This document shows, one piece after another, positions 4,752-61,410 of a stretch of 64,000 nucleotides of DNA. The notes under the pieces are model-generated. The model saw nothing but the letters and a program-made list of their open reading frames with translations. It was not told the origin of the DNA and did no database searches. Origin of the DNA: an uncultured Gammaproteobacteria bacterium. GTDB taxonomy: Bacteria > Patescibacteriota > Patescibacteriia > Magasanikbacterales > GWA2-37-8. The position numbers were made by a program, and so were the translations under genes. Numbering within the stretch: the first letter of the stretch is position 1; each line of letters starts with the position of its first letter. The stretch is from the NCBI GenBank assembly GCA_964511375.1, contig CAZEEW010000001.1:70512-134511 (forward strand). Reading direction: 5' to 3'.

Positions 4752-4757
4752 AATTAT

Positions 4758-4791
4758 AAAAAATTAAAAACCTCGGGTAATTCCCGAGGTT
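4758..4791 (-). terminator. Intrinsic terminator after rpsT
   Basis: Hairpin AACCTCGGG-taatt-CCCGAGGTT, followed on the minus strand by a T-run. Confidence 0.6.
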
Positions 4792-4807
4792 TATTATACT
4801 TTTTAAC

Positions 4808-5068
4808 TTACTTTTTCGCAAGGCTGTTTACAGACTTCATAAGGCGAGACAACTTGCGAGCAGCGGTGTTTTTCTTAATAACACCACGCTTTGCCGCCTT
4901 GTCTAAAGCTTTTTGGGCAGTCTGAGCAAGCTTTTTAGCATCTTCTAAACTGGTGGCCTTTTTAGTGCTTTTTATAGCATCTTTAAAAGCGTCTTTTCGA
5001 ACTTTATTCCAAGCAGTACGTTTTATCGCTTGACGTAGAGCCTTTTTAGCATTTGCTTTATTTGGCAT
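4808..5068 (-). CDS. rpsT: 30S ribosomal protein S20
   Basis: 86 aa, Lys/Ala-rich, with the N-terminus MPNKANAKKALRQAIKR typical of S20. Confidence 0.85.
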   Translation of the reverse strand: MPNKANAKKALRQAIKRTAWNKVRKDAFKDAIKSTKKATSLEDAKKLAQTAQKALDKAAKRGVIKKNTAARKLSRLMKSVNSLAKK

Positions 5069-9872: not shown

Positions 9873-9944
9873 GCCCCCATAGTTCAATGGATAGAACAGG
9901 TCCGTCCTAAGGACAAAATGTGCGTTCGATTCGTGCTGGGGGCA
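9873..9944 (+). tRNA. tRNA-Arg (anticodon CCT)
   Basis: Hand-folded cloverleaf: acceptor GCCCCCA/TGGGGGC, anticodon loop GTCCTAA, T-loop TTCGATT. No CCA is encoded. Confidence 0.85.
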
Positions 9945-9950
9945 CTATAT

Positions 9951-10021
9951 GGGCCTATGGTTCAGTGGTAGAACGCGGCATTCGCATTGCTGAGACGGCA
10001 GTTCGATTCTGCCTAGGTCCA
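9951..10021 (+). tRNA. tRNA-Ala (anticodon CGC)
   Basis: Hand-folded cloverleaf: acceptor GGGCCTA/TAGGTCC with the G3:U70 Ala identity pair, anticodon loop TTCGCAT, T-loop TTCGATT. Confidence 0.9.
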
Positions 10022-10043
10022 CAAGAAAAATGTGATAAATATC

Positions 10044-19065: not shown

Positions 19066-22000
19066 ATGGAAGAGTTTGCGGAAAAGTTAAAAAAACAGGG
19101 AAGAACCCTATTTTTTAGCGTACTAGGGATATTTTTTGTTATGCTAACTTTTAGCATTATTTTGCAACAAGATTCAGCTGTCGAAGCAGCGACGCCCCCT
19201 ACTATTGTTTCTTACCAAGGCAAGCTCTTGGTAGGTGGGAGTTTGGCATCGAGCACTGTTAGCATGACTTTCCGTTTATATGATGATCCAACCGCTGGGA
19301 GTGAAAAATATAATTCTGGAGCGGTAAGTGTCACTCCGCAATCCGGTTTATTTTCGGTCGAACTAGGTGGTAATGATGGTGCGGTAATTGACCCAACGAT
19401 TTTTAAGGATAATGCTGCTTTGTATTTGCAGGTTACAATTGGTGCCGAAAACCTGTCGCCTAGAAAGAGGATTACCACTGCACCTTACGCTCTAAACGCT
19501 CTTTACTTGGATGGTCGAATTGCTACAAGTACACCAACCAGCACTAGTTATGTTCCGTTGGCAGATAATTCTGGAAATTTTAATTTCAACAAAGTAACCT
19601 CCACGGAGGTATATGTGAGTGCTACGAGTTCATTTAACAATGGGACAGCCTTCTTTGTTCCATTTGATGGCACCAGTATTTTGAGCCTTGGCAATATAAC
19701 ATCAAATTCAGGGCTGCTGAGTATTTTGGGTACGACTGGAGATGCTCCCACAATTTTAATGGGAACAGGTGATGTGTACGGGGATGAATTTAATGTTTCA
19801 ATCGGTGGAGGAAATAGTCCAAGTATTGCTTTAAACTATAATTCGGTCTCGAATAATGGTTTGGAAATCGGGGCTAATGCCAGCGGCGGCTACATTGAGA
19901 GTACCCCAAGTAGTACAACTCTGAAGTTTGTTTCCAATATTGCTGCAGGGCTAGATTCATACTCTGCCTTTGAATTCAGAACAAATAATACCTTGACGGG
20001 CGGTGTAAACAAATATTTAGCCGCCTGGTACAATAATACGACAAACGTTATGGTTTTAAGTCCAGAGGGTACCCTGCTTGTTAACGCCCTTGGTGTTGCG
20101 GGTGTAGGCATTGAAACCACTGCGCTTACATCTTTCGGTACTGTCTCAGTCGGGACTGATCTTACAATAGGTGGTATAAATTATACACCCTACTTTATTG
20201 ATTCAGTTGGTACAAATGGTTATTTGTGGAAGTCAGACGGTGATGGACGTGGAACTTGGGTTTCAACTTCGAGCCTTGGTATAATAGGCGACCTTCCTCC
20301 TGGATCGACTGGCCAAGTTTTTCGTTATGGCTCTTCCTCGTGGGAAGCAACTAGTAGTTTGTTTATCGCTGATTCAGGTTTTGTTGGTATAGGAACCACA
20401 ACACCTAATTTAAAATTGACCATCGCAAATGATGGTGGTATGCAAGCAATGGGAACCTATGGTAGTGGTACGCTTCTTGCGACCAGTACAGGTTCGCAAT
20501 TTATTTGGTATCCAAGAAAGAGTTCTTTAATGGCTGGTCACATGGAAAGTTCGTACGAATATTGGTCAGATGGAATGGTGGGTAGTTACACTGCTTCGTT
20601 CGGAAGAGATAACCGTACCGGTGCTGATTATGCTTTCGCAGCAGGCAGCGGCAACAACGCTAACGGAACAGCTGCGGTTGCCATTGGATACGGTAATCAG
20701 GCAAGCGCAGAGTATAGTTCTGCCTTTGGGTCAGGGAATTTAAGCTTAGGTAATTATGGTGCAACTATAGGCCGCAGTAATCGAACTGATGGTGAATATT
20801 CCATTGCTATGGGATACACTGTGCGTGCTAGTTCAACCAGCGCTTTTGCCTGGGGATACAACTATACATTAACGACAGACTACTCACTTTCTATCGGTCG
20901 TGACGATGCAGATTTTATCTTTACGCCAGGAGAAAGCACAGCAACAAATACTGTAGCATTTTCTACTGTCACTCAATTTAATAACAACGTCGCAAGTACT
21001 ACTGGTGCCCTTGCATATATTTTGAATGCACCGAATTTTGCTTCTACGAGTCCCGATCAATACATTTTGTCCTTGCGCTCCAATAACACCCCGGTCTTTT
21101 CAGTAGCTTCCAACGGCAATGTTCATGCCTTAGGTACGTTAAGTGCATCGAGCGCAACGGTTGGTACTCCAGGAACACCCGGTGACTTGGCCGAGCGCGT
21201 GGATATTGCCATAGATGATACAGCTGAAGCTGGAGACGTATTAACTGTAGATGAAATCAGTCCAGATACTTATCGTCGCACGTCTGGCTCCTATGATGCT
21301 TCCGTTTCTGGTGTTGTGTCCACAAACCCGACGATTGTTGTTGGTAATGGTAAAACAGATTACACGGCGGTAATGGCCATGGTTGGTCGTGTACCCGTTA
21401 AAGCAAGTGCTGAAAACGGGCCAATTAATCGAGGTGATTTATTAGTTAGTGCTTCCTTACCCGGTCATGCTATGCGCTATGACCCGACCAAGGATGATAC
21501 CCGTGTAGTCGGTGTGATTGGTGTGGCTCTTGATTCGCTACCTTCCGGCAGTGGTAAAATTATGGCCCTGATCCGCACGGGCTGGGTGTATAACCGCAAT
21601 CAAAGCATCCAAGAGATTAAATCTAATTTAGAAACTTTAGCTGCGGTACAAGGCTTGAGCTTGGGTAGTAACCCGAACAATTTAGAAGTGCAGAATACTG
21701 GAGGTGCTTTAAATTACACTAGTGGAAACCTAAATCTTCAAGGGTTTGCCATTTTAAATGTGGGTCGAGTTATAGGAGTAAATGGTCGGTGGATTATTGA
21801 TGGTAATGGTCGATTAATTTCTAAAGTACAAACTTCTGAAGGTGAAAAAACTCTGTATTCTGTAAATTCATATAGCGATGAATTAATTATCTCAGGTAGT
21901 GATAAATTAACTTCCGGTGAGGCGCGAATTAATTTTGACCAAGCAACCAGAGAGATAATAAATAGTGACGAAACTTTGAAAGTAAATGTTACTTTAACTT

Positions 22001-22479
22001 CCGGTGAGGCCACGGGTATATACGTAAAAGAAAAAAATGAGCAGGGCTTTGTGGTAAAAGAAACTGGTGCTGGACAGAGTAATGCCACTTTTGATTGGGT
22101 AGTAATTGCTAAGCGTAAGCCAGTACCAACTCCCGAACCTCCAGCTGAAGTGACTAACCCGCCTCCGTCTAGCGGTAATAACACAGAAACGCCAGCGAGT
22201 TCGAATGAAAGTTCTGGTGGTAACCAAGTCAACCCACCTACCACTGATCAAGGTGCTGGTGAGACTAGTGAAGCCCCACCAAGTACTGATGCCAACGCAA
22301 GTCCAGACACAAACGACAATACTTCAGACACTGCTAGCCCTACTACAGAAACAAGTTCAACTCCGCCGCCAGCGGACCCTGTTGAAACTACCCCAGCACT
22401 AACCCAAACCACAGAAGCGCCTGTCGAGACAGGTGAAACTACTCCAGGCAATGGAGGAGAAGCATTAGCCAGCCCTTGA
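19066..22479 (+). CDS. Giant fibre/adhesin-like surface protein with N-terminal anchor and Pro/Thr/Ser-rich C-terminal tail
   Basis: 1137 aa with an N-terminal TM helix (LFFSVLGIFFVMLTFSIIL). Carries YadA-head-like repeats (aa ~520-600) and a low-complexity P/T/S/E tail. Confidence 0.8.
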   Translation: MEEFAEKLKKQGRTLFFSVLGIFFVMLTFSIILQQDSAVEAATPPTIVSYQGKLLVGGSLASSTVSMTFRLYDDPTAGSEKYNSGAVSVTPQSGLFSVELGGNDGAVIDPTIFKDNAALYLQVTIGAENLSPRKRITTAPYALNALYLDGRIATSTPTSTSYVPLADNSGNFNFNKVTSTEVYVSATSSFNNGTAFFVPFDGTSILSLGNITSNSGLLSILGTTGDAPTILMGTGDVYGDEFNVSIGGGNSPSIALNYNSVSNNGLEIGANASGGYIESTPSSTTLKFVSNIAAGLDSYSAFEFRTNNTLTGGVNKYLAAWYNNTTNVMVLSPEGTLLVNALGVAGVGIETTALTSFGTVSVGTDLTIGGINYTPYFIDSVGTNGYLWKSDGDGRGTWVSTSSLGIIGDLPPGSTGQVFRYGSSSWEATSSLFIADSGFVGIGTTTPNLKLTIANDGGMQAMGTYGSGTLLATSTGSQFIWYPRKSSLMAGHMESSYEYWSDGMVGSYTASFGRDNRTGADYAFAAGSGNNANGTAAVAIGYGNQASAEYSSAFGSGNLSLGNYGATIGRSNRTDGEYSIAMGYTVRASSTSAFAWGYNYTLTTDYSLSIGRDDADFIFTPGESTATNTVAFSTVTQFNNNVASTTGALAYILNAPNFASTSPDQYILSLRSNNTPVFSVASNGNVHALGTLSASSATVGTPGTPGDLAERVDIAIDDTAEAGDVLTVDEISPDTYRRTSGSYDASVSGVVSTNPTIVVGNGKTDYTAVMAMVGRVPVKASAENGPINRGDLLVSASLPGHAMRYDPTKDDTRVVGVIGVALDSLPSGSGKIMALIRTGWVYNRNQSIQEIKSNLETLAAVQGLSLGSNPNNLEVQNTGGALNYTSGNLNLQGFAILNVGRVIGVNGRWIIDGNGRLISKVQTSEGEKTLYSVNSYSDELIISGSDKLTSGEARINFDQATREIINSDETLKVNVTLTSGEATGIYVKEKNEQGFVVKETGAGQSNATFDWVVIAKRKPVPTPEPPAEVTNPPPSSGNNTETPASSNESSGGNQVNPPTTDQGAGETSEAPPSTDANASPDTNDNTSDTASPTTETSSTPPPADPVETTPALTQTTEAPVETGETTPGNGGEALASP

Positions 22480-22516
22480 TTTTCTTCATACTCTAGGCTA
22501 TACTATCCTGACTTAG

Positions 22517-22590
22517 GGGCCCTTAGCGTAGCTGGCTAGCGCGCTTCCATGGCATGGAAGAGGTCACGAGTTCGAATCTCGTAGGGTCCA
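22517..22590 (+). tRNA. tRNA-Ala (anticodon GGC)
   Basis: Hand-folded cloverleaf: acceptor GGGCCCT/AGGGTCC with G3:U70, anticodon loop ATGGCAT, T-arm ACGAG-TTCGAAT-CTCGT. Confidence 0.9.
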
Positions 22591-22597
22591 CAAAAAT

Positions 22598-30942: not shown

Positions 30943-30951
30943 CTAAGTGAG

Positions 30952-31285
30952 ATGCTGGCTCGGAGAGGAGGTGAGCGATGAGCCAGTTCAAGCGAGGTCT
31001 ACCACCCGACCTCAAAGCAATGGGTGGCCAGGTTTTCTGCCGGGAGCGGTTTGGTACAATCGTCGGTTACTCAACCGACGCCGCTCGAGGCAGACGGACT
31101 CTTCTTGTTCTCCAGGTCGTTCCTGGGTTCGGGGCGCAGGTGCTCCGGATTTCGGAGAATGACCACGATCTCTCGCGTGTGAGACTGGCGACGGCTTCGC
31201 CATGCTAGCCCCACGCGATAAGAAGGAGGCCTCGTGGCCTGCCTGATTCTCTTTGGCGCCGTTAAACACCTCGCGGCGCCCCTTC
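30952..31285 (+). other. GC-rich island 1 (foreign-composition cassette)
   Basis: Abrupt AT-to-GC switch at ATGCTGGCTCG. Contains an SD, a 76-aa ORF and G/C hairpins at 31227-31240 and 31255-31280. Confidence 0.8.
30978..31208 (+). CDS. Hypothetical 76-aa protein (island 1)
   Basis: A strong SD (GGAGAGGAGG) lies 6 nt upstream of the ATG. No family recognised. Confidence 0.55.
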   Translation: MSQFKRGLPPDLKAMGGQVFCRERFGTIVGYSTDAARGRRTLLVLQVVPGFGAQVLRISENDHDLSRVRLATASPC

Positions 31286-31288
31286 ATT

Positions 31289-31325
31289 AAAAAAAATAAT
31301 TAGCCGCCCTGATTTAAGAGCGGCT
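31289..31325 (-). terminator. Intrinsic terminator of the DNPH1-like gene
   Basis: On the minus strand: AGCCGC-N12-GCGGCT followed by a T-run (aattatttttttt). Confidence 0.7.
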
Positions 31326-32539: not shown

Positions 32540-32822
32540 ATGCGCTAGAATAACAGCTTTTTAATTATTTGTCAAATACATATTTACAATCTCATGCCTG
32601 GACTATTGCTAGGTATCCAAAAGTCTGCTATTATAAACGATCATCTTCAAAAAAAGAAGATGTTCAAATAATATTTACAAGCTCCTTAAAATTCGCAAAA
32701 AAGGCAAATTCAATCTGGCGAACCAACATTTTCTTTTAATTTTAGAAAAAAATGCTGGCTCGCCAGAAGGTCGTTCCTCACGGTGGGGGATGACTGGAAG
32801 GTAAGTTGGAAAGGAAAAAGAG

Positions 32823-33986
32823 ATGGAGTCGGTCCGTCTCTTGTCCTGGAGCTTCGTTCACGTGCTCCAGATGATTCTCAACCTCGCCCGGCGCGGCGGG
32901 GTCGACTTCTCCAACCCCGGTCTCCTCCGTGAGGCCCTGAACATCCGGGCCTGGGAGGCCCTCGACGAGTTGGGGCGCGACCCCAAACACTTGTGGCGGC
33001 TTACGCCGCCCCTGCACCAGGTTTACTCTCGGGCCCTGGCTTACGGAGCTGGGGACAGGTGTAGCCATAATCAGGTCTACATGGCAGCCGAACAAGCCAC
33101 CAGTCTCGCCGAGGTAGCACTCGGTGAGGTGGGGTACAGTTGGCTGTCGCGGCGTCAGGTTGCTGCTCAGCTGATCTACGCACTGGCGAATGAGATCCAG
33201 GGCGATCCGCACGCCCTGGACGCAGCCGAGCGTCAGTCCCGCTCCGAGGCCTTCCTCCGGGAGTTCTACGGGTGCGGGTGGGACGACCCCGACCCCGAGC
33301 TCCAGAAGGAAGTTGAGTACTACGAGCGCCAGCTCGGGGTGCTCTACTGCCTCAGGGCGATCGCGGTGCTCACCGAGCATCCCGAGCTCGACCTCGTCGA
33401 GCTGACCCGCCAGGGCCTCATGAAGTACGGGGTCGTGGACACCCGGGGCCGCCGGGTGTGCTACTGGTGCTCCGGTGCCCCCTGCGTCTGCGGTGGGCGG
33501 AAGGGCGGGATGAAGGCCCGCCGGCCGGAGATCACCTCCGACCTCGTCTGGGCCCGGGGACTGCCGGAGATGGACCAGCACATGGTCGTCTACGGCGTGT
33601 CTCGGAACTCGGCCATCAACGCCCTCGCGGGTGTGGTTCGCTCCCTGTCGGAGGACGGTGGGGAGTACGGATGGATCAACCTCATGTCCCGCTGTGGCGG
33701 GACGAACCGGGGAATCCAAGAGAGGCTCGGCTGCCTCTACCTCGGCAGCAGCCGGCACCCCCGCATGGCGGCCAAGAAGTTCGACGCCGAGGGCGTGCCT
33801 CTCATCGAGGGGCTCTACTCGGAGGCGGCGGACGCCGTCGTCTCCTGGCCCTGCCTCGTGACACAGGCCTTCGGTCTGCAGTTCACAAGGTCGGTCTTAC
33901 TCGGTCTCCAGCACATGGCCGATGGCGCCGGGGTCACGCTCGAGACCCCAGACGATCTGACCCGGACCATCCCGGTCCGCGAGTAG
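32823..33986 (+). CDS. Hypothetical 387-aa protein with Cys cluster CYWCSGAPCVC (island 2)
   Basis: Longest ORF of the island and G/C-dominated third positions in this frame. The other long ORFs here are off-frame or antisense shadows. No family recognised. Confidence 0.7.
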   Translation: MESVRLLSWSFVHVLQMILNLARRGGVDFSNPGLLREALNIRAWEALDELGRDPKHLWRLTPPLHQVYSRALAYGAGDRCSHNQVYMAAEQATSLAEVALGEVGYSWLSRRQVAAQLIYALANEIQGDPHALDAAERQSRSEAFLREFYGCGWDDPDPELQKEVEYYERQLGVLYCLRAIAVLTEHPELDLVELTRQGLMKYGVVDTRGRRVCYWCSGAPCVCGGRKGGMKARRPEITSDLVWARGLPEMDQHMVVYGVSRNSAINALAGVVRSLSEDGGEYGWINLMSRCGGTNRGIQERLGCLYLGSSRHPRMAAKKFDAEGVPLIEGLYSEAADAVVSWPCLVTQAFGLQFTRSVLLGLQHMADGAGVTLETPDDLTRTIPVRE

Positions 33987-34187
33987 TCGCCTCGCCGGCT
34001 GTCCTTCGGGGCGGTCGGTGGGCATGGTTTAGAGGTGGGGCGTTTCTCTTAGGGGAGACGCTTGCGCCTCCCCTATCCCAGTATTTCTTAATTCAAGGAA
34101 TGTTGAGATAGGAGGCTCGTAGACCGACGTGTTTTCGTTGGGCGCTCGGTTGAGCGCACGGCGAAACACCAAACAGAGGGAGGACAA

Positions 34188-34547
34188 ATGGTCCACAAGG
34201 ATCTCAGAATCGAGCTGGTGCTCGGCGGCGTCACTTTTATCATCGTTGGCTTCCTCGAGGCAGGCGAGGAAGTGATCACCGGTGATGAAATGAAGCGTCG
34301 GCTGGCGGCCCGCTCCTTGCGGCTCATCCACGGGGCGGATTTCGAGCACTTCTCTCGCTACCGCGAGGATTTGCCGAAAGAACTCCGACCTCACCTACTG
34401 GCCACAGACCAGTGTGCTCCAGAGTGCCAGAAAGAGACGACCGTCTTCGAGTTCTTCGAAGATGTGGAAGTGTGGCACTCGTTCTGGCACAACCTTTGCG
34501 GCCCGACATGGGGCCACAACGTCTTGGCGGTGTGCTGTTGTGTGTAG
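34188..34547 (+). CDS. Hypothetical 119-aa protein ending in CCCV (island 2)
   Basis: Strong SD AGAGGGAGGACAA-ATG and GC-rich codons. No family recognised. Confidence 0.6.
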   Translation: MVHKDLRIELVLGGVTFIIVGFLEAGEEVITGDEMKRRLAARSLRLIHGADFEHFSRYREDLPKELRPHLLATDQCAPECQKETTVFEFFEDVEVWHSFWHNLCGPTWGHNVLAVCCCV

Positions 34548-34555
34548 GAGGGAGC

Positions 34556-34585
34556 GGTGCCGGCGGGGGACCCCCCGCCGGCACC
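34556..34585 (+). terminator. G/C hairpin closing island 2
   Basis: GGTGCCGGCGGGGG-a-CCCCCGCCGGCACC. The T-run begins only 9 nt later, so this is not a canonical intrinsic terminator. Confidence 0.55.
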
Positions 34586-34691
34586 CGTAGTCCCTTTTAA
34601 TTTAAATCACTAGCGTTGTTTTATTATAACTTACCTCTTGATGTACTAAATAATTATTTGTGATATACTTCATTTATTCTAATTCTTAATT

Positions 34692-51694: not shown

Positions 51695-51751
51695 CTTATG
51701 TATTCCATTTAGCTTCTCTGTAGTCTTTAGCTAACAAGTGTTTGCTAGTTA

Positions 51752-52066
51752 AGGGCCGGGACAGAGAAGCTGTCCGCGGGTTAAAGAGTATGGGAACAGC
51801 TAGGTGGTTCGTCGATCACCGCCTTCGCTGTAGAACAGCGAGGGTAGCGATTGAGAAGAACACACCTCCCACAACCGTCACGCGCTTAGGTTCGCGCGCA
51901 AGATCGTGGAACAAGCCGTCCCCGGTAAGGTCACCGCTCGCGCAGGCCAGGAGTCCGCAGATGATGCTTGCGAACACGGCTCCAGCCACGAGAGCGAGGA
52001 CTAGCCGAACGATCGCTTGATCACACTGCTGGGTCATTTGACCCCTCCATGCCCCCGCAGGGGCAA
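51752..52066 (-). other. GC-rich island 3 (foreign-composition cassette)
   Basis: Abrupt composition switch on both sides. Hairpin GCCCC-tgcg-GGGGC lies upstream of the SD, and GGACAG-N5-CTGTCC lies downstream of the stop. Confidence 0.8.
51816..52037 (-). CDS. Hypothetical 73-aa two-TM membrane protein (island 3)
   Basis: SD GGAGGGGTCAA-ATG at the internal Met of the 91-aa ORF. Two hydrophobic helices (IVRLVLALVAGAVFASIICGLLA; VTVVGGVFFSIATLAVL). Confidence 0.6.
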   Translation of the reverse strand: MTQQCDQAIVRLVLALVAGAVFASIICGLLACASGDLTGDGLFHDLAREPKRVTVVGGVFFSIATLAVLQRRR

Positions 52067-54000: not shown

Positions 54001-54729
54001 ATGTCAGGACATTCCAAATGGCACAATATTCAAGGACGGAAAGGTAAACAAGATGCGAAGCGTAGCAACCTATTTACTAAATTTGCTAAAGGCATTACGG
54101 TCGCGGCCCAATCTGGTGGAGGAGACCCTGAAATGAATTTCTCTTTACGCATTGCAATTGAAAAGGCTAAGGCTGTCGGTATGCCCAAAGATAATATCGA
54201 GCGGGCTATCAAACGCGGCACTGGTGAATTAAATGATGGCGTAAAAGTAGAAACAGTAATATATGAGGGATATGGACCGGGCGGTGTGGCCATACTTCTA
54301 AAAGCTTTAACTGACAATAAGAATCGAACTGTTTCAGATGTTAAACATTTGCTTTCTGAACATGGTGGCTCAATGGCTGGGCCGGGAAGCGTACTTTGGA
54401 TGTTTGAGCAGTGGGGATTAATTACTATCAGCAGATCCAGCATTACCAAAAGTCGTGATGAATTTGAATTAGAGTTAATCGAAGCTGGGGCTGAGGATAT
54501 TGCCGACGTGGAGGAAGATAAAGTTGAAATTAAAACCAAAGTAGAAAATTTACAAAAAGTTTTAGCTGCTCTTAAGACCTCTGGTATTGAACCAGAACAA
54601 TCCGGATTAGTGTGGTTGGCTAAAGACGAAGTAGATGTGACACCAGAGAATGCCGAGAAGCTGGCCGATCTCTTCGCCGAACTAGAAGACAATGATGATA
54701 TCGAAGATTATTACACCAACGCTAAATAG
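54001..54729 (+). CDS. yebC: YebC/PmpR-family transcriptional regulator
   Basis: N-terminus MSGHSKWHNIQGRKGKQDAKR and full-length family similarity. Confidence 0.9.
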   Translation: MSGHSKWHNIQGRKGKQDAKRSNLFTKFAKGITVAAQSGGGDPEMNFSLRIAIEKAKAVGMPKDNIERAIKRGTGELNDGVKVETVIYEGYGPGGVAILLKALTDNKNRTVSDVKHLLSEHGGSMAGPGSVLWMFEQWGLITISRSSITKSRDEFELELIEAGAEDIADVEEDKVEIKTKVENLQKVLAALKTSGIEPEQSGLVWLAKDEVDVTPENAEKLADLFAELEDNDDIEDYYTNAK

Positions 54730-54730
54730 C

Positions 54731-55255
54731 ATGAAAGCACTACTCGAAAAAAAGACAAGAATAATTGGTATTGACCCCGGTTTTGGTCGGGTTGGTTATG
54801 GCGTAATAGAGAAGGTAGGGAGGAGAGATTGGCAAGTAGTGGATTATGGTTGCATTGAAACCGCTAAGGGGAAAAAGTTTGTCGATCGCTTAACAGAAAT
54901 ATTTGACGAGCTAAATGTTTTAGTTAAAAAATACAAACCAGAAAGAATGGCGGTTGAAAAGCTATTCTTTTTTCGTAATGTAACAACCGCAATTGAAGTC
55001 GGGCAGGCCCGAGGGGTAATATTACTTACCGCTGTTCAGAATGGACTGGAGGTAGACGAATTTACGCCGCTTCAGGTAAAGCAAGCCATTACTGGCTACG
55101 GTAAAGCAGAGAAGCCGCAGATGCAGAAAATGGTAGCTATGATATTAGGTATCAAGGAAAAAATAAAATCCGATGATGCGGCCGACGCCCTGGCGATTGC
55201 TTTGTGTGCCGGACAGAGTCTGTGGATGAATAAACTAAAAGGAGTAAAACCGTGA
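54731..55255 (+). CDS. ruvC: Holliday junction resolvase RuvC
   Basis: IIGIDPGFGRVGYGVIE and a C-terminal DAADALAIALC. The ATG at 54731 directly follows the yebC stop. Confidence 0.9.
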   Translation: MKALLEKKTRIIGIDPGFGRVGYGVIEKVGRRDWQVVDYGCIETAKGKKFVDRLTEIFDELNVLVKKYKPERMAVEKLFFFRNVTTAIEVGQARGVILLTAVQNGLEVDEFTPLQVKQAITGYGKAEKPQMQKMVAMILGIKEKIKSDDAADALAIALCAGQSLWMNKLKGVKP

Positions 55256-55262
55256 AGCACGG

Positions 55263-55291
55263 TTGACAATTTGTCTAATTTTAGCTAAAAT
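55263..55291 (+). promoter_or_regulatory. Sigma70-type promoter TTGACA-N17-TAAAAT upstream of island 4
   Basis: Consensus -35 and 17-nt spacer counted by hand, about 60 nt before the GC switch. Confidence 0.55.
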
Positions 55292-55349
55292 CACATTCAT
55301 ACATTGGACGTGATTTGTTTTTTAATAGCGAAAATTGCTGTTAAAAAAC

Positions 55350-55988
55350 ATGTCTCGTCCAGGGCGGACGGGAGTAAACCCGCAACGGGAGAGTTCAGAT
55401 GAAGAGCCTGGTGTCGTGTTTCGTGCTGGTCGCCCTGTTCCTCAACCTGTTCGGCTGCATCGAAGCGGCCGAGTTCAACCACTCCGACGCGACGACCGTG
55501 TCGGAGGACGTGGCTAGCGTCCAAGACGTCTCCTTGCCAGAGGAGAACGACATCGCCATCAAGATTCCCCGGGCGGAGTGCCCGGAGGCAACAGCCGGAC
55601 CATACACGGTCCGAGTTGTGATCGACGCCACGACCTGGGTCAGGATCTCGTCCGAGGTAGAGCGTGTCTTCCTCAGCCGGGAGCTCGATGCAGATCGGAT
55701 GGACACGGCCGAAATTCGCGTCGAGTCCGCCGGGTGCGATTTCCAGTTCGCCATCAGCAACAACTCCACGGAGGTCGCGCACGTCTCTGTGGAAGCCCCG
55801 ACAGGGGTTTCCATCACCATCCGGTACGCCCGTGGCGGATCCGAGACCGTTCCCGCGAACGGTTTCAAGCAGGCGATCGTCTACACGGTCGGTAATGTGA
55901 AGTACTACTTCCATTACCAGCCGCCGGGCTGAGCACCAAGGGCGGCAAGTCGCCGCCCGCGAGGCTGCCGCATCGTACTGGCCCTCGT
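55350..55988 (+). other. GC-rich island 4 (foreign-composition cassette)
   Basis: The composition switch falls exactly at an ATG (55350). Contains a lipoprotein ORF, with hairpin GGGCGGC-N5-GCCGCCC (55940-55958) after the stop. Confidence 0.8.
55399..55932 (+). CDS. Hypothetical lipoprotein, 177 aa (island 4)
   Basis: Signal peptide with lipobox LFGC, very high G/C at third positions, and SD-like GGGAGAG 7 nt upstream. Confidence 0.7.
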   Translation: MKSLVSCFVLVALFLNLFGCIEAAEFNHSDATTVSEDVASVQDVSLPEENDIAIKIPRAECPEATAGPYTVRVVIDATTWVRISSEVERVFLSRELDADRMDTAEIRVESAGCDFQFAISNNSTEVAHVSVEAPTGVSITIRYARGGSETVPANGFKQAIVYTVGNVKYYFHYQPPG

Positions 55989-56052
55989 ATTCATTATTAA
56001 TCCTTTGGGGTTGGTAATGAGTACTTACTTCCAGTACGCTTGCGAATAAAAA

Positions 56053-56084
56053 TAAAGGACTTCCCAATCGGGGAGTCCTTTTGA
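56053..56084 (+). terminator. Intrinsic terminator after island 4
   Basis: AAAGGACT(T)CCC-aatcg-GGGAGTCCTTT followed by TTTTGACTTTT. Confidence 0.7.
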
Positions 56085-56122
56085 CTTTTCACACATAATT
56101 ATGCTAAAATTTGCTAAATATT

Positions 56123-56587
56123 ATGAAAAAAACCGATAGAAAATTTGTAATAGTGTTACCGAATATTCGCAGCTGCCATAATGTAGGTGCTGTTTTTCGT
56201 ACTGCCGATGGCGCCGGGGTAGATAAAATCTATCTCACTGGCTATACGCCAGACCCATCTCACCCTAAAATGGCGAAAGTGTCGCTTGGTGCAGAAAAGT
56301 CTGTGCCCTGGGAAAAACACTATCAAACAGCCAGGGTTTTAAAGCAATTAAAGGCCGAAGGATACAAAATAGTTGCCTTGGAGAAAACTAGTAAAAGTGT
56401 TAATATGTATTCATGGAAACCAGACTTCCCCCTTGCTTTGATCGTTGGAAATGAAGTAACTGGTGTCACACCAAATATCTTGAAATACTGTGATGAAATC
56501 ATTCATTTACCAATGAATGGCATTAAAGAGAGTCTGAATGTCAGTATCGCAAGCGGTATCGCCATCTATTACATTGCTAATAACTAA
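56123..56587 (+). CDS. SpoU/TrmH-family RNA 2'-O-methyltransferase
   Basis: Motifs NVGAVFRTADGAG, LIVGNEVTGV and LNVSIASGIAIY. Confidence 0.85.
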   Translation: MKKTDRKFVIVLPNIRSCHNVGAVFRTADGAGVDKIYLTGYTPDPSHPKMAKVSLGAEKSVPWEKHYQTARVLKQLKAEGYKIVALEKTSKSVNMYSWKPDFPLALIVGNEVTGVTPNILKYCDEIIHLPMNGIKESLNVSIASGIAIYYIANN

Positions 56588-56590
56588 ATT

Positions 56591-57316
56591 ATGCAATCCA
56601 CTATCTCACTTTTTCGTCACCTTTACGAAAAACTTCCTCCCTTATTTCCGGAAGAAACAAAGACCAAGATTAAACACGCCCTGGATCATTTAGAAAATGA
56701 TCCGACCGTTAGTTTAAGTGAAATTGAGGACACGATGGTGATGTTTGGTTATGAGGTGTGGCCTTGGAATCAGGCTTATCGTGAATTCTTGGCTTTAGCC
56801 GAAGGCGAAGTTGGCGAACATTTTTTACTACCCAGACTGAGCCAGGAGCTACAAACAAAATACGAAGATTATAAAGGATATGGAATGTCGCTTCGGGATT
56901 TGCATTCAGGGAATCCAGCTGAGTATTTCACGTCCGAAGAGCGAGTTGAACTCGCTACTGCCCTCGTAGATTTGCAGAATGATTTAAGAAAATATTTAGA
57001 GCACAAGATAATTAGCGAATACCAGACTAAATATTTATCTCGCGTTCAGGAATTTACTAGATTATTAGATGAGATGAGAGCCAGGATTCAAGACTTACGT
57101 AGTTTGGCAGATTCAGAACAAGATCACCCAACACTAGCTGACGAAATTCGACAGCAAATCAAAGCCTTTGAGCATGGACTATGCTTGCTCGGCCCAGAAC
57201 TACGTTATGACGCTGTTCTTGGTTCACCGGAATATTTTCATGGTCGCAAGTCCGAGCTAAACCGCATGCGAGGTATTCATGAAAGTCTGGAAATAGATTT
57301 TTATAACGAAGATTAA
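56591..57316 (+). CDS. Hypothetical protein
   Basis: 241-aa helical-looking ORF, tightly packed with its neighbours. No family recognised. Confidence 0.6.
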   Translation: MQSTISLFRHLYEKLPPLFPEETKTKIKHALDHLENDPTVSLSEIEDTMVMFGYEVWPWNQAYREFLALAEGEVGEHFLLPRLSQELQTKYEDYKGYGMSLRDLHSGNPAEYFTSEERVELATALVDLQNDLRKYLEHKIISEYQTKYLSRVQEFTRLLDEMRARIQDLRSLADSEQDHPTLADEIRQQIKAFEHGLCLLGPELRYDAVLGSPEYFHGRKSELNRMRGIHESLEIDFYNED

Positions 57317-57324
57317 TAAATTTT

Positions 57325-57762
57325 ATGGAAGAGAAGAGAGTTGGGGTGGGATTTGGTGTAATGTTATTAAAAGGAAACAAGATATTATTAGGCAAACGAC
57401 ACGAAGATCCGGTAAAGGCCAGTAGCTTATTGAATGGTGCCGGGACTTGGACCATGCCAGGGGGTAAATTGAAGTTTGGGGAAACATTTGAACAAGGATC
57501 AAAAAGAGAAGTATTAGAGGAAACCGGTATTGAATTAAACAGCGCCAAAGTAATCGCCGTTAATAATGATATTGTTGATTCCGCCCACTTTGTTACTGTC
57601 GGAGTTATGTCCAATGACTTTGTTGGTGAGCCCCAAGTTTTAGAGCCAGAACAAATTACTGAGTGGGATTGGTTTGAATTAGATAATCTACCTTCACCGT
57701 TATATTTTCCGAGTGCCAAGATTTTAGAAAATTATAAAGAAAACAAGTTCTATATCCCTTAG
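57325..57762 (+). CDS. Nudix hydrolase
   Basis: Nudix box GGKLKFGETFEQGSKREVLEETGI. Confidence 0.8.
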   Translation: MEEKRVGVGFGVMLLKGNKILLGKRHEDPVKASSLLNGAGTWTMPGGKLKFGETFEQGSKREVLEETGIELNSAKVIAVNNDIVDSAHFVTVGVMSNDFVGEPQVLEPEQITEWDWFELDNLPSPLYFPSAKILENYKENKFYIP

Positions 57763-57772
57763 ATATTAAAAT

Positions 57773-58189
57773 ATGGAAAGCCAACGACCAAAAGTAGGAG
57801 TAGGAGTCTTTGTTTTTAAAGATGGAAAAATTCTCTTTGGCCAGAGAAAAAATACCGGGCATGGAGTCGGAACATGGAGTTTGCCCGGTGGTCACCTGGA
57901 GTTTAATGAGGAAGTAGAAAAATGCGCAGAGAGAGAGGTGATGGAGGAGGCGGGTATTAAGATAAAAAATGTGCGTCTGGGTCCCTATACTAATGATATT
58001 TTTACAAATGACAACAAGCATTACATAACATTATTTGTAATGTCGGACTACGATTCGGGCGAGGTAACTAACATGGAGCCAGAGAAACTCGAAGAATGGC
58101 GGTGGGTAGAGTGGAACGACCTGCCAGAACCTCTGTTTTCACCAATAGTTAGCTTTATGAATTCTGGTTATAGCCCGTTCATGAACTAA
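57773..58189 (+). CDS. Nudix hydrolase (paralog of the preceding gene)
   Basis: Nudix box GGHLEFNEEVEKCAEREVMEEAGI. Confidence 0.85.
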   Translation: MESQRPKVGVGVFVFKDGKILFGQRKNTGHGVGTWSLPGGHLEFNEEVEKCAEREVMEEAGIKIKNVRLGPYTNDIFTNDNKHYITLFVMSDYDSGEVTNMEPEKLEEWRWVEWNDLPEPLFSPIVSFMNSGYSPFMN

Positions 58190-58200
58190 AAAGCTTAAAA

Positions 58201-58226
58201 AACTGACCATTAAGGTCAGTTTTTTG
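58201..58226. terminator. Bidirectional terminator
   Basis: AACTGACC-attaa-GGTCAGTT flanked by A6 and T5, between convergent genes. Confidence 0.8.
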
Positions 58227-58232
58227 TTTCTA

Positions 58233-59216
58233 TTAAATTCTTTTTGGTCTTACGTGGTTATATCTCTTCAACATTCTTTTAATTCCGTTTTCGTCCAAAA
58301 GACCAAAATGCGGACCGTGTTTTTGAATTACCCCCGAGCTATTAGCGATACCCCACATTAAGGCGGTATACATATTCTCGCCTTTAATTCTGGCCGCCAG
58401 ATAACCAGCAGAAAAAGCATCTCCGGCACCAGTTTTGGCTATAACCTTCACCGGCAGGCTTTCCATGTGCCAACCCTCATCTTCCTCTAGTGCAAAGACA
58501 CCATTAGCACCATCGGTAATCACAACTTCTTTGGCACCAAACATCATAAGTTGGTGCATAATTGAAGTAAGATTTTTTTCTTTCTCAAGAGTAGTATTTA
58601 GGAGCATTTCCGCCTCCTCGAGGTTGAGTATAAGAATATCTGCTCTCGCCAGTGCCTCTAGTAATTTTTTGGGAGCATATTTTAATTGGAAAGAGCCAGG
58701 GTTGATCGCGAGACGAACTGTTGGGTGTTTGCTTAAGTATTTCAGTAAACCATCCTGGATTTTTTCATAGCCATCAGATAACCCAGTGTAATAAATCCAG
58801 TTACTTGGTGGGATCTCTTTTGGCCAGACATATTTTCTCTTTTGGTGGTAAGAAAGGATCGTGCGTTCACCCTGGAAGTTAATAACCGTCGAGTATCTGG
58901 TCAAGGCTTTGTCATCGATGGTAACAAGAGTTGTATCAACTCCGGCCGCGTTTAATTCTTGAGTTACAAATTCACCATTAGGGTCGTTCCCGATGCTGGC
59001 AATAATGGCAGTGTTTAAGGCTAATTCAATTGCGCCTCGAGCGACGTTGGCCGCATTACCTCCGAGCGACTGGAAACTACCTTTAATTGGCACTTTACCA
59101 GCATAGTTAAAGCAAAGTTTTTTATGATCATGAAGTATGGCACATTCAGCGCTGGATTCATCAACGATGAGGTGGGTGTCAACTAAGACGTCACCAATGG
59201 TTATTAGCTTAAACAT
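58233..59216 (-). CDS. PfkB-family carbohydrate/nucleoside kinase
   Basis: The C-terminal GAGDAFSAGYL motif and the N-terminal GGNAANVA-type motif. Confidence 0.8.
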   Translation of the reverse strand: MFKLITIGDVLVDTHLIVDESSAECAILHDHKKLCFNYAGKVPIKGSFQSLGGNAANVARGAIELALNTAIIASIGNDPNGEFVTQELNAAGVDTTLVTIDDKALTRYSTVINFQGERTILSYHQKRKYVWPKEIPPSNWIYYTGLSDGYEKIQDGLLKYLSKHPTVRLAINPGSFQLKYAPKKLLEALARADILILNLEEAEMLLNTTLEKEKNLTSIMHQLMMFGAKEVVITDGANGVFALEEDEGWHMESLPVKVIAKTGAGDAFSAGYLAARIKGENMYTALMWGIANSSGVIQKHGPHFGLLDENGIKRMLKRYNHVRPKRI

Positions 59217-59222
59217 ATCTGT

Positions 59223-59546
59223 CTAGTTAGATTTACCACTAGGATTTTTGTAGCTCTCCACGTCCTTCAGGTTGTGTCCGTGTTTGCCTAAAATAATTTC
59301 CACCATTTCAATGAAACTACCGAGAGTAAAACCAGCCATGGCAATCGAAAATACCTTGTTACCCACCCAGAGGGCGTATATAAATAAACAGGCGCCCGCC
59401 ACAACAAATACAGCGTCTTGGCGACGCTCTGTTTCCAAAAACACCCCATAAGTTAATAAAATAGCCCCAAGACCAGCAACTACGTTCATAAGGATTGTAG
59501 TTAGCGGCCAAGGTAGGGTAGAGAAAATCTCTGGTAGTGGCGGCAT
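59223..59546 (-). CDS. Small 3-TM membrane protein
   Basis: 107 aa, paralogous to 59557..59790 (LLTYGVFLETERRQDAVFV against LLITYGIFVKKEIRQDIVFA). Confidence 0.55.
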   Translation of the reverse strand: MPPLPEIFSTLPWPLTTILMNVVAGLGAILLTYGVFLETERRQDAVFVVAGACLFIYALWVGNKVFSIAMAGFTLGSFIEMVEIILGKHGHNLKDVESYKNPSGKSN

Positions 59547-59556
59547 ATGTTTTAAG

Positions 59557-59790
59557 TTAAGAAGTAACTTTTTTATTTCGTAATTTAAATATTTCGTAGA
59601 GACTAGCGAGAGTAAAAATTATTTGCAAAGGTATGAAGATTGGATCGCGCAAGTACGAGCTGTATGCTAAGAGAAATATCCCGCCTAAAGCAAAAACAAT
59701 ATCTTGTCGTATCTCTTTTTTAACAAAAATACCGTAAGTAATGAGCAAAACTCCAATTACTCCAGAAGTTTTCGCTAAGATTTCTAGCAT
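59557..59790 (-). CDS. Small 3-TM membrane protein (tandem paralog)
   Basis: 77 aa with three hydrophobic helices. Confidence 0.55.
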   Translation of the reverse strand: MLEILAKTSGVIGVLLITYGIFVKKEIRQDIVFALGGIFLLAYSSYLRDPIFIPLQIIFTLASLYEIFKLRNKKVTS

Positions 59791-59791
59791 A

Positions 59792-60754
59792 TTAATTTTC
59801 TGTCCAACGGTTTATGTATTCAATGGCAGCAAGAGCAGCCGTAATACCTTGTCCAGCAGAAATGCCGATCTGTTTGTAAGGGATGTTGGTGACGTCACCA
59901 GCCGCAAATATTCCAGGGCAACTGGTTCGGCATTTTTGATCAACTATGATTTGGCCGTTTGCATCTTTCTCAACACAATCGGCGATGTCTGAATTCGGTG
60001 TTTGACCAATGTGGATCATAACCCCATCAAGGTTTAAGGTATTTTCCTTGCCTTGTTCATCTAAATATTTCAACCCCGTTACTTTATCTGGCCCAATTAT
60101 TTCAGCTGTTTTTACTGAGTAAAGAATCTCAATTTTTGGATTAGCTTTAATTTTATCCACTAAAATAGTTTCACCCTTAGGGAAGCCACCATTAAATTCC
60201 TTTTGGTTCGGATATTTACTTAGTACATATACCTTGCTCGCGAGTTCGCCCATCATAAGGGCAGATTCGAGAGCGGCATTACCTGAACCAATCGTTGCCG
60301 TTACCTTATTTCGGAAAAGAGGACCATCACAGACTGTACAGTAGGTAAGACCTTTGTGAAGTAATTCCTGCTCACCTGGCACCTTTAGGTGACGAGGTTT
60401 AATGCCGGTGGCAATAATTACTCCCTTAGCTTGGTAAACATCTTCCTTGCCATCAGCTTTTTTGACGTGAACGTTGTGGTGATTCATTTCTGGAACAATT
60501 TTGTAGACCCAGGTGCCTTCTTCTAAATCTACTTCTGGATAGCTCTTGGCATGTTCAATAAATTTATTAGCCAATTCATAACCCTGAATTTCAATAATAC
60601 CTGGCCAGTTGTTAACAATGCCAGATAAGGCAACTTCTCCGCCCAAACGGTCAGAGATTAGTTTAATTTTTAGTCTGCGTCTTGCCGCATACACTGCGGC
60701 AGCTGGTCCAGCCGCTGCCCCTCCGATGATAATAAGATCAAACATAACAAACAA
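59792..60754 (-). CDS. trxB: Thioredoxin-disulfide reductase
   Basis: FAD motif IIGGAAAGPAAA, redox-active CTVCDG and NADPH motif GSGNAALE. Confidence 0.92.
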   Translation of the reverse strand: MFVMFDLIIIGGAAAGPAAAVYAARRRLKIKLISDRLGGEVALSGIVNNWPGIIEIQGYELANKFIEHAKSYPEVDLEEGTWVYKIVPEMNHHNVHVKKADGKEDVYQAKGVIIATGIKPRHLKVPGEQELLHKGLTYCTVCDGPLFRNKVTATIGSGNAALESALMMGELASKVYVLSKYPNQKEFNGGFPKGETILVDKIKANPKIEILYSVKTAEIIGPDKVTGLKYLDEQGKENTLNLDGVMIHIGQTPNSDIADCVEKDANGQIIVDQKCRTSCPGIFAAGDVTNIPYKQIGISAGQGITAALAAIEYINRWTEN

Positions 60755-60756
60755 GT

Positions 60757-61410
60757 TTACAAATTGGTTAATTGTGAATAAGCTGCTTGAATATTTTCCG
60801 CCCCCATTAAGGCACTACCAACATAGGCAATATCTACACTCCAAGAACGGATCAGATCGATATTTTCTGGCTTTACCCCACCATCAATAGCTAGAACAGG
60901 GGAGTCGGTACCAAGACTGCTTTTTAAGTCTTTAATCTTGTTGCCAACAAAATCTAAAAAGTCTCCACCTTGTTTTCCGGGGTAAACGGTCATGAATAAA
61001 ATTAAGTCAATTATACCACAGAACGGTTGGATTTTCGACCAAGCCGTGTCTGGGTTAATTGCTATTCCGACTTCATGTCCCAGTTCCCTAATTTTAGCTA
61101 TCACTTCCGCTGGGTCGTCGAGAGATTCAATGTGAAAGATTATTCTTTTTAAACCGTGGACATTTGACCAAGATTTAATCTCTTCTAGTGGGTTATTAAC
61201 CATGAGATGCAATTCTAAGCCAAAAGGTAAGTTAAGGTGGTTAACTTCCTCTCTCTCAGGAAACGACTGGTTATTTACAAAAACTCCGTCCATAATGTCT
61301 AGTTGAACATAGGACGGATTCAGTAGTTTAACTTTCTCAGTCTGTATTTTGAATTTTGAAAAACTGTCTACCAAAATGGCCGGAACAATTTGCATAGTTT
61401 TAAGCTTCAA
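60757..61410 (-). CDS. rpe: Ribulose-phosphate 3-epimerase
   Basis: QLDIMDGVFVNN and the overall TIM-barrel family pattern. Confidence 0.9.
   Translation of the reverse strand: MKLKTMQIVPAILVDSFSKFKIQTEKVKLLNPSYVQLDIMDGVFVNNQSFPEREEVNHLNLPFGLELHLMVNNPLEEIKSWSNVHGLKRIIFHIESLDDPAEVIAKIRELGHEVGIAINPDTAWSKIQPFCGIIDLILFMTVYPGKQGGDFLDFVGNKIKDLKSSLGTDSPVLAIDGGVKPENIDLIRSWSVDIAYVGSALMGAENIQAAYSQLTNL

Follow-up and report, generated by a model that had tools for sequence, protein, structure and literature searches.

The DNA analysed here is a 64-kb stretch of contig CAZEEW010000001.1 (hereafter the window, whose mean GC content is 0.42), in which the segment between ruvC and the gene for a SpoU-type methyltransferase (spoU) holds a predicted lipoprotein gene far richer in GC than its neighbours. 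How did such a gene come to lie there, and what accounts for its composition? A reading of the letters alone (the sequence-only reading) had taken it for a foreign gene from a high-GC donor. Our analysis suggests instead, as the reading we consider probable, an autonomous, moron-like single-gene unit which was inserted at the ruvC-spoU junction in the ancestor of a narrow clade and has been inherited since. The unit consists of a near-consensus promoter, a conserved, structured leader of about 100 nt, a strong Shine-Dalgarno sequence, a 177-aa open reading frame (ORF), three hairpins on the 3' side, the last being the terminator, and a new promoter for spoU (Table 1). Its GC-richness would be actively maintained, either by selection on the transcript or by a local GC-favouring process, rather than being the mere leftover of a recent transfer.

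Table 1. Features of the ruvC-spoU island, in window coordinates
Feature	Position	Strand	Basis or remark
Entire inserted unit	55256..56122	.	ruvC stop (55255) to spoU start (56123), 867 bp; alignable in window, L002, L003/L014/L019 and L004
GC-rich core, 636 bp, GC ~0.62	55350..55985	.	Windowed composition
Sigma-70-type promoter TTGACA-17-TAAAAT	55263..55291	+	11/12 consensus positions; predicted from sequence
Predicted 5' leader, ~101 nt	55298..55398	+	Transcription start inferred from -10 box
Long leader hairpin	55304..55362	+	~6 nt from predicted 5' end; spans AT-to-GC switch
Shine-Dalgarno GGGAGAG	55387..55393	+	5 nt upstream of ATG 55399; read from sequence
Prolipoprotein gene, 177 aa (stop codon included)	55399..55932	+	GC at codon positions 1/2/3 0.58/0.44/0.82; full-length homologues; purifying selection in frame
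Signal peptide and lipobox L-F-G-C	55399..55458	+	Cys20 codon 55456-55458
7-bp GC hairpin directly after stop codon	55940..55958	+	55940-55946 pairs with 55952-55958
Long imperfect hairpin of the 3' untranslated region	55969..56044	+	Between GC hairpin and terminator; spans GC-to-AT switch
Intrinsic terminator	56054..56090	+	12-bp stem 56054-56081, then T-run; kept with compensatory changes in relatives
Replacement spoU promoter TTGACT-18-TAAAAT, TG extension	56081..56110	+	10/12 consensus; conserved in L002-L004; inside insertion
Antisense ORF, 256 aa	55297..56067 (= L001 839-1609)	-	Codon-aligned antisense frame; public gene call on Logan contig

A genuine island and its coding frame

The window has a bacterial look: its gene content includes rpoB/rpoC, PGA_cap/Memo, yebC, ruvC, spoU, NUDIX genes, recA and type IV pilus genes, and the nearest public homologues of its RuvC carry the source labels Patescibacteria or Candidatus Magasanikbacteria. 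Measured over 200 nt at a time, the GC content stands at 0.60-0.63 from 55400 to 55999 versus ~0.36-0.45 on either side, and both compositional borders, near 55350 and 55985, are abrupt. The jump described by the sequence-only reading is real (GC 0.62 versus 0.42 for the genome; GC content at third codon positions, GC3, 0.82 in the plus-strand ORF versus 0.35-0.40 in neighbouring genes). Its placement exactly at an ATG holds in part, as the switch does lie near 55350, but relatives have AAG there and it is thus no conserved start. A Logan contig from SRR5011273 (L001) is 100% identical to positions 54459-61077 of the window, and further alleles were seen again in JGI, ENA and NCBI assemblies. 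Because identical junctions and alleles recur in independent assemblies, the island is genuine DNA rather than an assembly artefact.

Two ORFs overlap in the island, the plus-strand gene and a longer ORF on the opposite strand. It is hardly credible that the minus-strand ORF of 256 aa is the real gene or that the island is an assembly chimera. The automatic gene call did choose the antisense ORF, whose frame is open in all four known alleles. This openness, however, follows from the lack of TTA, CTA and TCA codons in the sense frame of all four alleles, as expected with a third-position A frequency (A3) of ~0.06. Across the domain core of the two closest alleles (loci L002 and L004, described below), the plus frame shows 12 synonymous and 1 non-synonymous differences whereas the antisense reading shows 1 and 12, and the ratio of non-synonymous to synonymous differences (pN/pS) amounts to 1.3-2.6 in the antisense frame where it is 0-0.04 in the sense frame. 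This 12:1 synonymous excess, reversed in antisense, establishes the plus frame as the gene and settles a doubt raised by the sequence-only reading, namely that the minus-strand ORF might prove to be the conserved frame. No family match was found for the antisense ORF in Pfam or PHROGs, and it is a by-product of composition; as to a chimera, the junctions are identical in independent assemblies from several projects. An exact-sequence look-up of the plus-strand product returned no record in the protein collection because the antisense ORF was called on the Logan contig, which is probably also why a word-indexed homology search with the single protein gave no match.

Homologues confined to a single slot

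When 1.84 billion representative proteins were searched exhaustively with phmmer, exactly two matches resulted, both full length: P0001 (171 aa, E 1.3e-20) and P0002 (181 aa, E 5.6e-17). The former is encoded on NCBI contig DATDYA010000008.1 (L002), labelled Patescibacteria group bacterium, the latter on a JGI contig (L003), and both are encoded between RuvC and SpoU. A scan of one genome per GTDB species, which matched solely Patescibacteria-type loci in this slot, revealed a third locus, L004, with the order rpoC, PGA_cap, yebC, ruvC, X (the homologue), spoU. The P0002 allele was met twice more, at L014 (another JGI sample) and at L019 (an ENA assembly), each time in the same slot, and the cluster member P0124 also lies in the ruvC-spoU slot. 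Altogether there are four distinct alleles, two of which (L002 and L004) are close to one another. Locus L004 (CAZRZQ010000038.1) is labelled 'uncultured Gammaproteobacteria bacterium'; it has a Patescibacteria-type gene order and ~90% nucleotide identity to L002, and the metagenome-assembled genome it belongs to is probably mis-binned.

A profile of the four alleles found no further members among 5.8 billion protein clusters, bearing in mind that a single-sequence or shallow-profile search can miss very divergent members. Neither a pattern scan of IMG/VR nor searches of GenBank phages (tblastn) and PLSDB plasmids yielded a copy. Within the collections searched, the lipoprotein family thus appears to exist only at the ruvC-spoU slot of one narrow Patescibacteria clade. 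The mimicry once suggested for the product is without support, since no similar protein was found in any other organism searched.

Insertion, age and inheritance

In relatives L007, L013 and L017, ruvC directly abuts or overlaps spoU, which answers in the affirmative a question raised by the sequence-only reading and identifies the 867-bp unit as an insertion. Locus L017 is a 963-kb contig whose gene order is otherwise identical and whose site is empty; in the empty-site relatives, spoU follows ruvC without spacer. The cassette was present in every sampled genome with at least 84% RuvC identity and absent only from examined relatives at 78% or less, and at RuvC identities of 70-77% to that of the window the junction differs from the window's. 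The non-coding elements (promoter, leader, 3' hairpins, terminator, spoU promoter) can be aligned base for base among the carriers. Occupation of the same slot with orthologous untranslated regions (UTRs), in genomes whose flanks are synonymously saturated, indicates that the cassette was inherited from a common ancestor, and a single insertion in the common ancestor of the carriers is the simplest reading.

Recent horizontal acquisition from a high-GC donor, with an island not yet ameliorated, is consequently contradicted by the shared ancestry of the cassette across carriers, and we hold it to be very improbable. The sharp compositional jump with its GC3 of 0.82 and the absence of the island from more distant relatives would suit such an event, as would reports that horizontal transfer and genomic islands are common in Patescibacteria (PMC12455944). 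Yet the orthologous UTRs occur in lineages separated by a flank synonymous divergence (dS) of at least 1.5, the alleles are 33-40% identical and near saturation at four-fold sites, and the GC3 expected after that time would be 0.44-0.53. Furthermore, no search detected a donor homologue, and no mobility gene or border repeat was found: the borders show no mobility genes, att sites or terminal repeats, the neighbours being YebC, RuvC, SpoU and NUDIX. Nor do the island segments have a second copy in the window (21-mer search with 3 mismatches; blastn). The word foreign does not stand if it is to mean a recent or a recognisable import, as no copy exists outside the clade in any collection searched and the cassette is inherited. 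The earlier expectation that homologues of host-like GC content throughout the lineage would mark a native gene was borne out by half, as homologues are present throughout the lineage, yet every one of them is GC-rich and none is host-like.

Two candidate identities were rejected at this point. A recent genomic island would deviate in composition as this one does, but donor homologues, patchy presence and mobility features are all missing. A phage origin found no match in PHROG, IMG/VR or GenBank phages, and the flanks are rpoBC, PGA_cap/Memo, yebC, ruvC, spoU and NUDIX.

The slot itself is variable beyond the carriers. Locus L012 (RuvC 77% identical) bears a different, cytoplasmic-looking ORF of 69 aa with its own terminator (GC 0.49; 4511-4853), so that the ruvC-spoU junction was used more than once, and in L008 and L018 ruvC is followed by a pseudouridine synthase gene.

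Persistent GC-richness

All alleles are GC-rich (0.585-0.65 overall, GC3 0.77-0.89) in contigs of 0.42-0.45 GC, and the cores of the relatives have GC contents of 0.585 (L002), 0.637 (L003) and ~0.58 (L004). Diverged alleles differ at 38-58% of the four-fold sites in shared codon boxes, many of these differences being C/G swaps. We modelled amelioration as an F81 decay toward the host third-position composition over 0.75-1.3 substitutions per site, which predicts a GC3 of 0.44-0.53, or 0.47-0.59 if the starting GC3 was 1.0. Since the synonymous sites have largely turned over and GC3 is still ~0.8, the composition must have been maintained by something: GC-richness was either maintained in place or renewed from outside, and renewal would have no visible source. 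Long-tract GC-biased gene conversion was considered as a means of maintenance. At the neighbouring ends of ruvC and spoU, GC3 is no more raised than in empty-site relatives, and this lack of spill-over argues against it.

Renewal from outside would amount to repeated replacement of alleles from an unseen GC-rich pool (host organism or phage), by recombination through the GC-rich leader and 3' hairpin. Such replacement would account for the lasting high GC3 as well as for alleles being decoupled from their flanks (see below), the conserved GC-rich segments 55350-55398 and 55933-55985 could anchor the recombination, and amino acid usage is itself GC-shifted (Lys 2.0% versus 7.8%). Every copy, however, sits on a Patescibacteria-type contig and in the same slot, and no copy elsewhere was found among the 1.84 billion proteins, the 5.8 billion clusters, IMG/VR, GenBank phages or plasmids, although very divergent members may escape such shallow searches. 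We therefore deem this explanation unlikely and favour maintenance of the inherited unit. The literature, searched for Patescibacteria lipoproteins and for islands that are GC-rich or hypervariable, reports horizontal transfer in general terms (PMC12455944), but we found there no account of small orphan cassettes with a lasting GC-richness.

Rates, constraint and allele exchange

Among carriers, the lipoproteins share 37, 33 and 40% identity, compared to 84-97% for RuvC, 85-92% for SpoU and 75-97% for a 241-aa neighbour. Between L002 and L003, nucleotide identity in 100-nt windows drops from 0.85-0.95 to 0.38-0.62 in the coding sequence and rises again beyond it, in the 3' UTR; the coding sequence is less conserved than either UTR. 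For the same pair, the flanks show a dS of 0.53-0.79 and a non-synonymous divergence (dN) of 0.013-0.04 (dN/dS, omega, ~0.03) versus a dN of 0.48 and a dS of ~1.0 (omega ~0.5) for the lipoprotein, whereas flank dS is at least 1.5 between the window and the L002 group; the L004 ruvC rows were left out of this comparison. Hypermutation, which had been considered for the 33-40% identity, need not be invoked when dN and dS are taken separately: most of the divergence follows from an omega of ~0.5 combined with an approximately normal synonymous rate.

Constraint is unevenly spread along the protein. Between L002 and L004, pN/pS is 0-0.04 in codons 49-80 and 96-171, but reaches 2.0 in the tether (codons 21-48) and 1.2 both in the signal peptide and in codons 81-95, the values above 1 resting on 5-12 changes per segment and being non-significant on their own. 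Judging from this distribution, the folded core is under purifying selection while the signal peptide, the tether and a loop (codons 81-95) gather replacements. The gene could alternatively be an ordinary lineage-specific orphan of little function that drifts under relaxed constraint and owes its GC-richness to selection on RNA structure or to a non-coding role. An omega of ~0.5 is compatible with this, as are the absence of a recognisable domain and the better conservation of the UTRs than of the coding sequence. The strong excess of synonymous changes in the core of the closest allele pair nevertheless runs counter to drift, and so does the retention of the frame, the signal peptide, three Cys residues and the C-terminal YxFH motif across saturated divergence; a drifting gene would also lose its GC3. 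Relaxed constraint thus strikes us as rather improbable when compared with inheritance of a functional unit.

Allele and flank divergence do not match. The L002 and L004 alleles have a dS of 0.17, below the 0.44-0.50 of their flanks, whereas the L002 and L003 alleles have a dS of ~1.0, above the 0.53-0.79 of theirs. Loci L003 and L014 carry an identical allele, yet show 16 differences in the last 155 bp of ruvC (L003 867-1022), a pattern which looks like a recombination breakpoint beside the cassette. The history of the alleles is thus decoupled from that of the flanks, and, taking the dS mismatch together with the L003/L014 pattern, we infer that exchange of alleles between strains by homologous recombination is the natural explanation. 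Alleles would pass between strains through recombination anchored in the conserved UTRs and flanks.

Promoters, leader and 3' RNA structures

The near-consensus promoter lies where the sequence-only reading had placed it, and it is kept in relatives: L002-L004 share an unchanged -35 box and have TACAAT as -10 box. Three promoter-like sites occur in the region while 1.1 are expected from shuffled sequences. In the carrier alignment, conservation is higher in the leader than in the coding sequence, and the fold of the leader is more stable than that of 200 out of 200 shuffles (z = -5.0). Of the leader pairings previously proposed, GTCC...GGAC and CCC...GGG are found in the consensus fold of four relatives but not in the minimum-energy fold of the window alone, where the long leader hairpin forms instead and occupies the same CTCGTCC. 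The AU-rich core stem of this hairpin is almost invariant in the four loci, which leaves little covariation to be counted. The Shine-Dalgarno sequence reads GGGAGG in L002-L004, and its GGG pairs with the upstream CCC in the consensus fold.

Downstream of the gene, the G/C hairpin described after the stop codon was recovered at the same place, with an invariant stem and a variable loop across relatives. The entire 3' UTR folds at z = -8.3 relative to shuffled sequence. Its long hairpin has a mean column identity of 90% and a few compensatory pairs, and a covariance model built from it and run over 141 kb matched at the ruvC-spoU locus only (single copy). The terminator formerly placed at 56053-56084 is equally present as a stem with its T-run, and the promoter facing spoU overlaps its tail. 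Given the conserved spoU promoter inside the insertion, the terminator would isolate spoU from upstream transcription in carriers. Rfam searches at gathering and permissive thresholds detected three tRNAs elsewhere in the window and only chance-level matches in the island.

The near-consensus promoter, the 5' hairpin, the strong Shine-Dalgarno sequence and the stacked 3' hairpins would fit a stable, well-expressed mRNA. We propose that the 5'-proximal hairpin and the 3' hairpins stabilise this mRNA and would thereby allow high expression.

Predicted product

The N-terminus predicted earlier, MKSLVSCFVLVALFLNLFGC, is present as described. In MKSLVSCFVLVALFLNLF, K2 is followed by a hydrophobic stretch of 15 residues, and the same layout occurs in all alleles. 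Residues L17, G19 and C20 are invariant in the four alleles (L-x-G-C box). We used a PROSITE PS51257-like version of the lipobox rule, [LVI][ASTVI][GAS]C with invariant Cys; the L002, L003 and L004 alleles pass it, whereas the window allele fails at N16 alone. The lipobox signal peptide of the sequence-only reading is thus upheld as to its presence and its invariant box but departs from this rule in the window allele. Besides the signal peptide and the L-x-G-C box, the alignment conserves C61, C113 and a C-terminal VG..Y.FH motif.

AlphaFold2 models reached a pLDDT of 56 from the single sequence and 47 from a three-sequence alignment, and the secondary-structure calls of these two low-confidence models concur on an all-beta domain. 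Foldseek searches of the PDB with the better model returned no match at E <= 0.001 (TM <= 0.28). As the models are poor and Foldseek gave no match, we claim no fold. The best Pfam hit was DUF6694 (PF20404; E 0.0029, 18.4 bits versus a gathering threshold of 24.3, residues 9-51); membership was rejected because the hit is sub-threshold and covers only the low-information signal peptide and tether. No family match was found in NCBIfam, PHROGs or PADLOC, and PDB sequences gave E values of at least 0.16. The absence of a recognisable family noted at the outset is therefore confirmed for matches above threshold in Pfam, NCBIfam, PHROGs, PADLOC and PDB, and the product would belong to a new orphan lipoprotein family.

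Based on these features, we predict that the product is exported by Sec and then lipidated at Cys20. The remainder would consist of an acidic, disordered tether of ~30 residues and, held by it at the membrane's outer face, a beta-rich domain of ~125 residues, which a C61-C113 disulfide probably locks. Exposed segments may diversify under pressure from encounters at the cell surface, for example with a host cell or a phage. The conserved core, the quick-changing exposed segments and the allele exchange would fit a surface protein pressed by a partner cell or phage.

Several points weigh against the picture of a maintained, inherited lipoprotein unit. With an omega of ~0.5 and a flank dS of 0.5-0.8, ordinary mutation and weak constraint explain most of the divergence, which leaves diversifying selection as no more than a possibility. 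The sample comprises only four distinct alleles. As the stems of the UTRs are nearly invariant, their structure is backed by folding energy and not by covariation. The lipobox of the window is slightly atypical (F18 at -2, N16 at -4), and no Lgt or LspA was found among the ~20 window ORFs scanned against Pfam, although no search was aimed at lgt or lspA. Lastly, both structural models are poor, which makes any fold, and with it the function, conjectural.

Comparison with known systems

Phage morons, a concept reportedly due to Hendrix and colleagues, include small moron-encoded lipoproteins such as Llp of T5 or the Cor exclusion proteins. Like a moron, the cassette has its own promoter and terminator, a single ORF, an atypical composition and a small predicted lipoprotein product, and it sits between genes that are adjacent in related genomes (L007, L013, L017). 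Unlike morons, it is chromosomal, lies among housekeeping genes with no prophage and no PHROG or phage similarity, and is richer in GC than its own genome.

The hypervariable lipoprotein loci ospC and dbpA of Borrelia, which interact with the host, are reported to be shaped by recombination and selection (PMC11389397). They resemble the cassette in encoding a surface lipoprotein (predicted here) with deeply divergent alleles, conserved flanks and decoupled genealogies. The cassette differs from them by a lack of homology, a single chromosomal slot, a monoderm-type ultra-small bacterium and a strong GC shift; moreover, it is represented by only four alleles so far.

Like the horizontally acquired genomic islands of Patescibacteria (PMC12455944), the cassette is an insertion of deviant composition in a streamlined genome. 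It differs in being shorter than 0.9 kb with one gene and neither mobility genes nor donor, and in being shared by descent across a clade with no sign of amelioration.

Two further candidates were rejected. Diversity-generating retroelements (DGRs) are common in bacteria of the Candidate Phyla Radiation (CPR; 10.1101/2020.04.01.020958), and the product, a putative surface protein that diversifies quickly in a genome of this group, would resemble a DGR target, but its variation spans the protein and there is no C-terminal variable repeat. No template repeat was found in the 64-kb window and no reverse transcriptase among the scanned window ORFs; close alleles differ by 19 AT-to-GC versus 18 GC-to-AT changes, which is not adenine-specific. 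Integron cassettes likewise pair a short ORF with a long imperfect hairpin downstream, and relatives do differ in what the slot holds (L012), but the unit has its own promoter, is single-copy and forms no array. On inspection, the hairpin at 55969-56044 lacks RYYYAAC/GTTRRRY core sites, and no integrase was found among the scanned ORFs.

Other GC-rich islands

Further GC-rich islands were observed in the window. Islands A (30950-31290, ~0.57 GC) and B (32750-34595, 0.60-0.70 GC) lie among housekeeping genes with no mobility gene nearby, and both open with the same 11-mer, ATGCTGGCTCG, at the switch from AT to GC (30952 and 32752). The 11-mer of island A forms a CTGGCTC/GAGCCAG hairpin around the Shine-Dalgarno sequence and ATG (30978) of a 76-aa ORF. 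Island B holds ORFs of 387 aa (32823-33986, GC3 0.86) and 119 aa (34188-34547, GC3 0.74) and ends with a perfect 14-bp GC hairpin (34556-34585). Neither of these two ORFs matched Pfam, PHROG, phages or plasmids; the 387-aa ORF gave a weak JetD-like PADLOC match only (E 0.002).

Island C (51745-52065) directly follows rpoC and contains a 72-aa membrane ORF on the minus strand (52034-51816). GC-rich islands also follow rpoC in L004 (1351-1650), L007 (1611-2010) and L018 (1531-2210), with contents that cannot be aligned; L017 has none. The window and L004 share a hairpin, AGCTTCTCTGT...ACAGAGAAGCT, beside the post-rpoC island, whereas no clear ORF and no Rfam match were found in that of L007.

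Two other features of the window concern GC-rich sequence. The tRNA genes for Arg(CCT), Ala(CGC) and Ala(GGC), at 9873-10022 and 22517-22591, are decoders of GC-rich codons. A mild GC rise (~0.51) at 22100-22480 corresponds to the Pro/Thr/Ala-rich low-complexity tail of a 1137-aa ORF (19066-22479) and is no island.

It is conceivable, although we put it forward as a tentative and rather doubtful proposal, that the cassette, islands A, B and C and the post-rpoC islands of L004, L007 and L018 form an undescribed class of small, GC-held orphan insertions. Such a class would hold single-gene insertions with orphan proteins, some of them secreted or membrane-bound. A locus-specific process would keep their GC content much higher than the genomic equilibrium, the candidates being strong selection on transcript composition (e.g., resistance to AU-directed RNases) and local GC-biased repair or conversion.

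Biological significance

The gene itself is of an ordinary kind; its maintained composition is the noteworthy part, and similar islands recur in the genome and in relatives. Odd composition is routinely read as a sign of recent transfer, whereas here it is old and stable, with a GC3 of ~0.8 in a genome of ~42% GC. A stable GC3 through near-saturating synonymous change is unexpected under simple amelioration and points to a maintaining force. Annotation is affected as well: as gene callers trained on a low-GC genome choose the antisense ORF, public protein sets partly lack such genes or give them wrongly, and GC-rich genes in low-GC genomes may be systematically mis-called as antisense.

Patescibacteria lead a life of attachment to other cells, and hardly any of their surface proteins have been characterised. 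The cassette provides a clean candidate for study: a predicted clade-specific surface lipoprotein, apparently geared to strong expression, whose exposed segments would change fast while its regulatory RNA parts change slowly.

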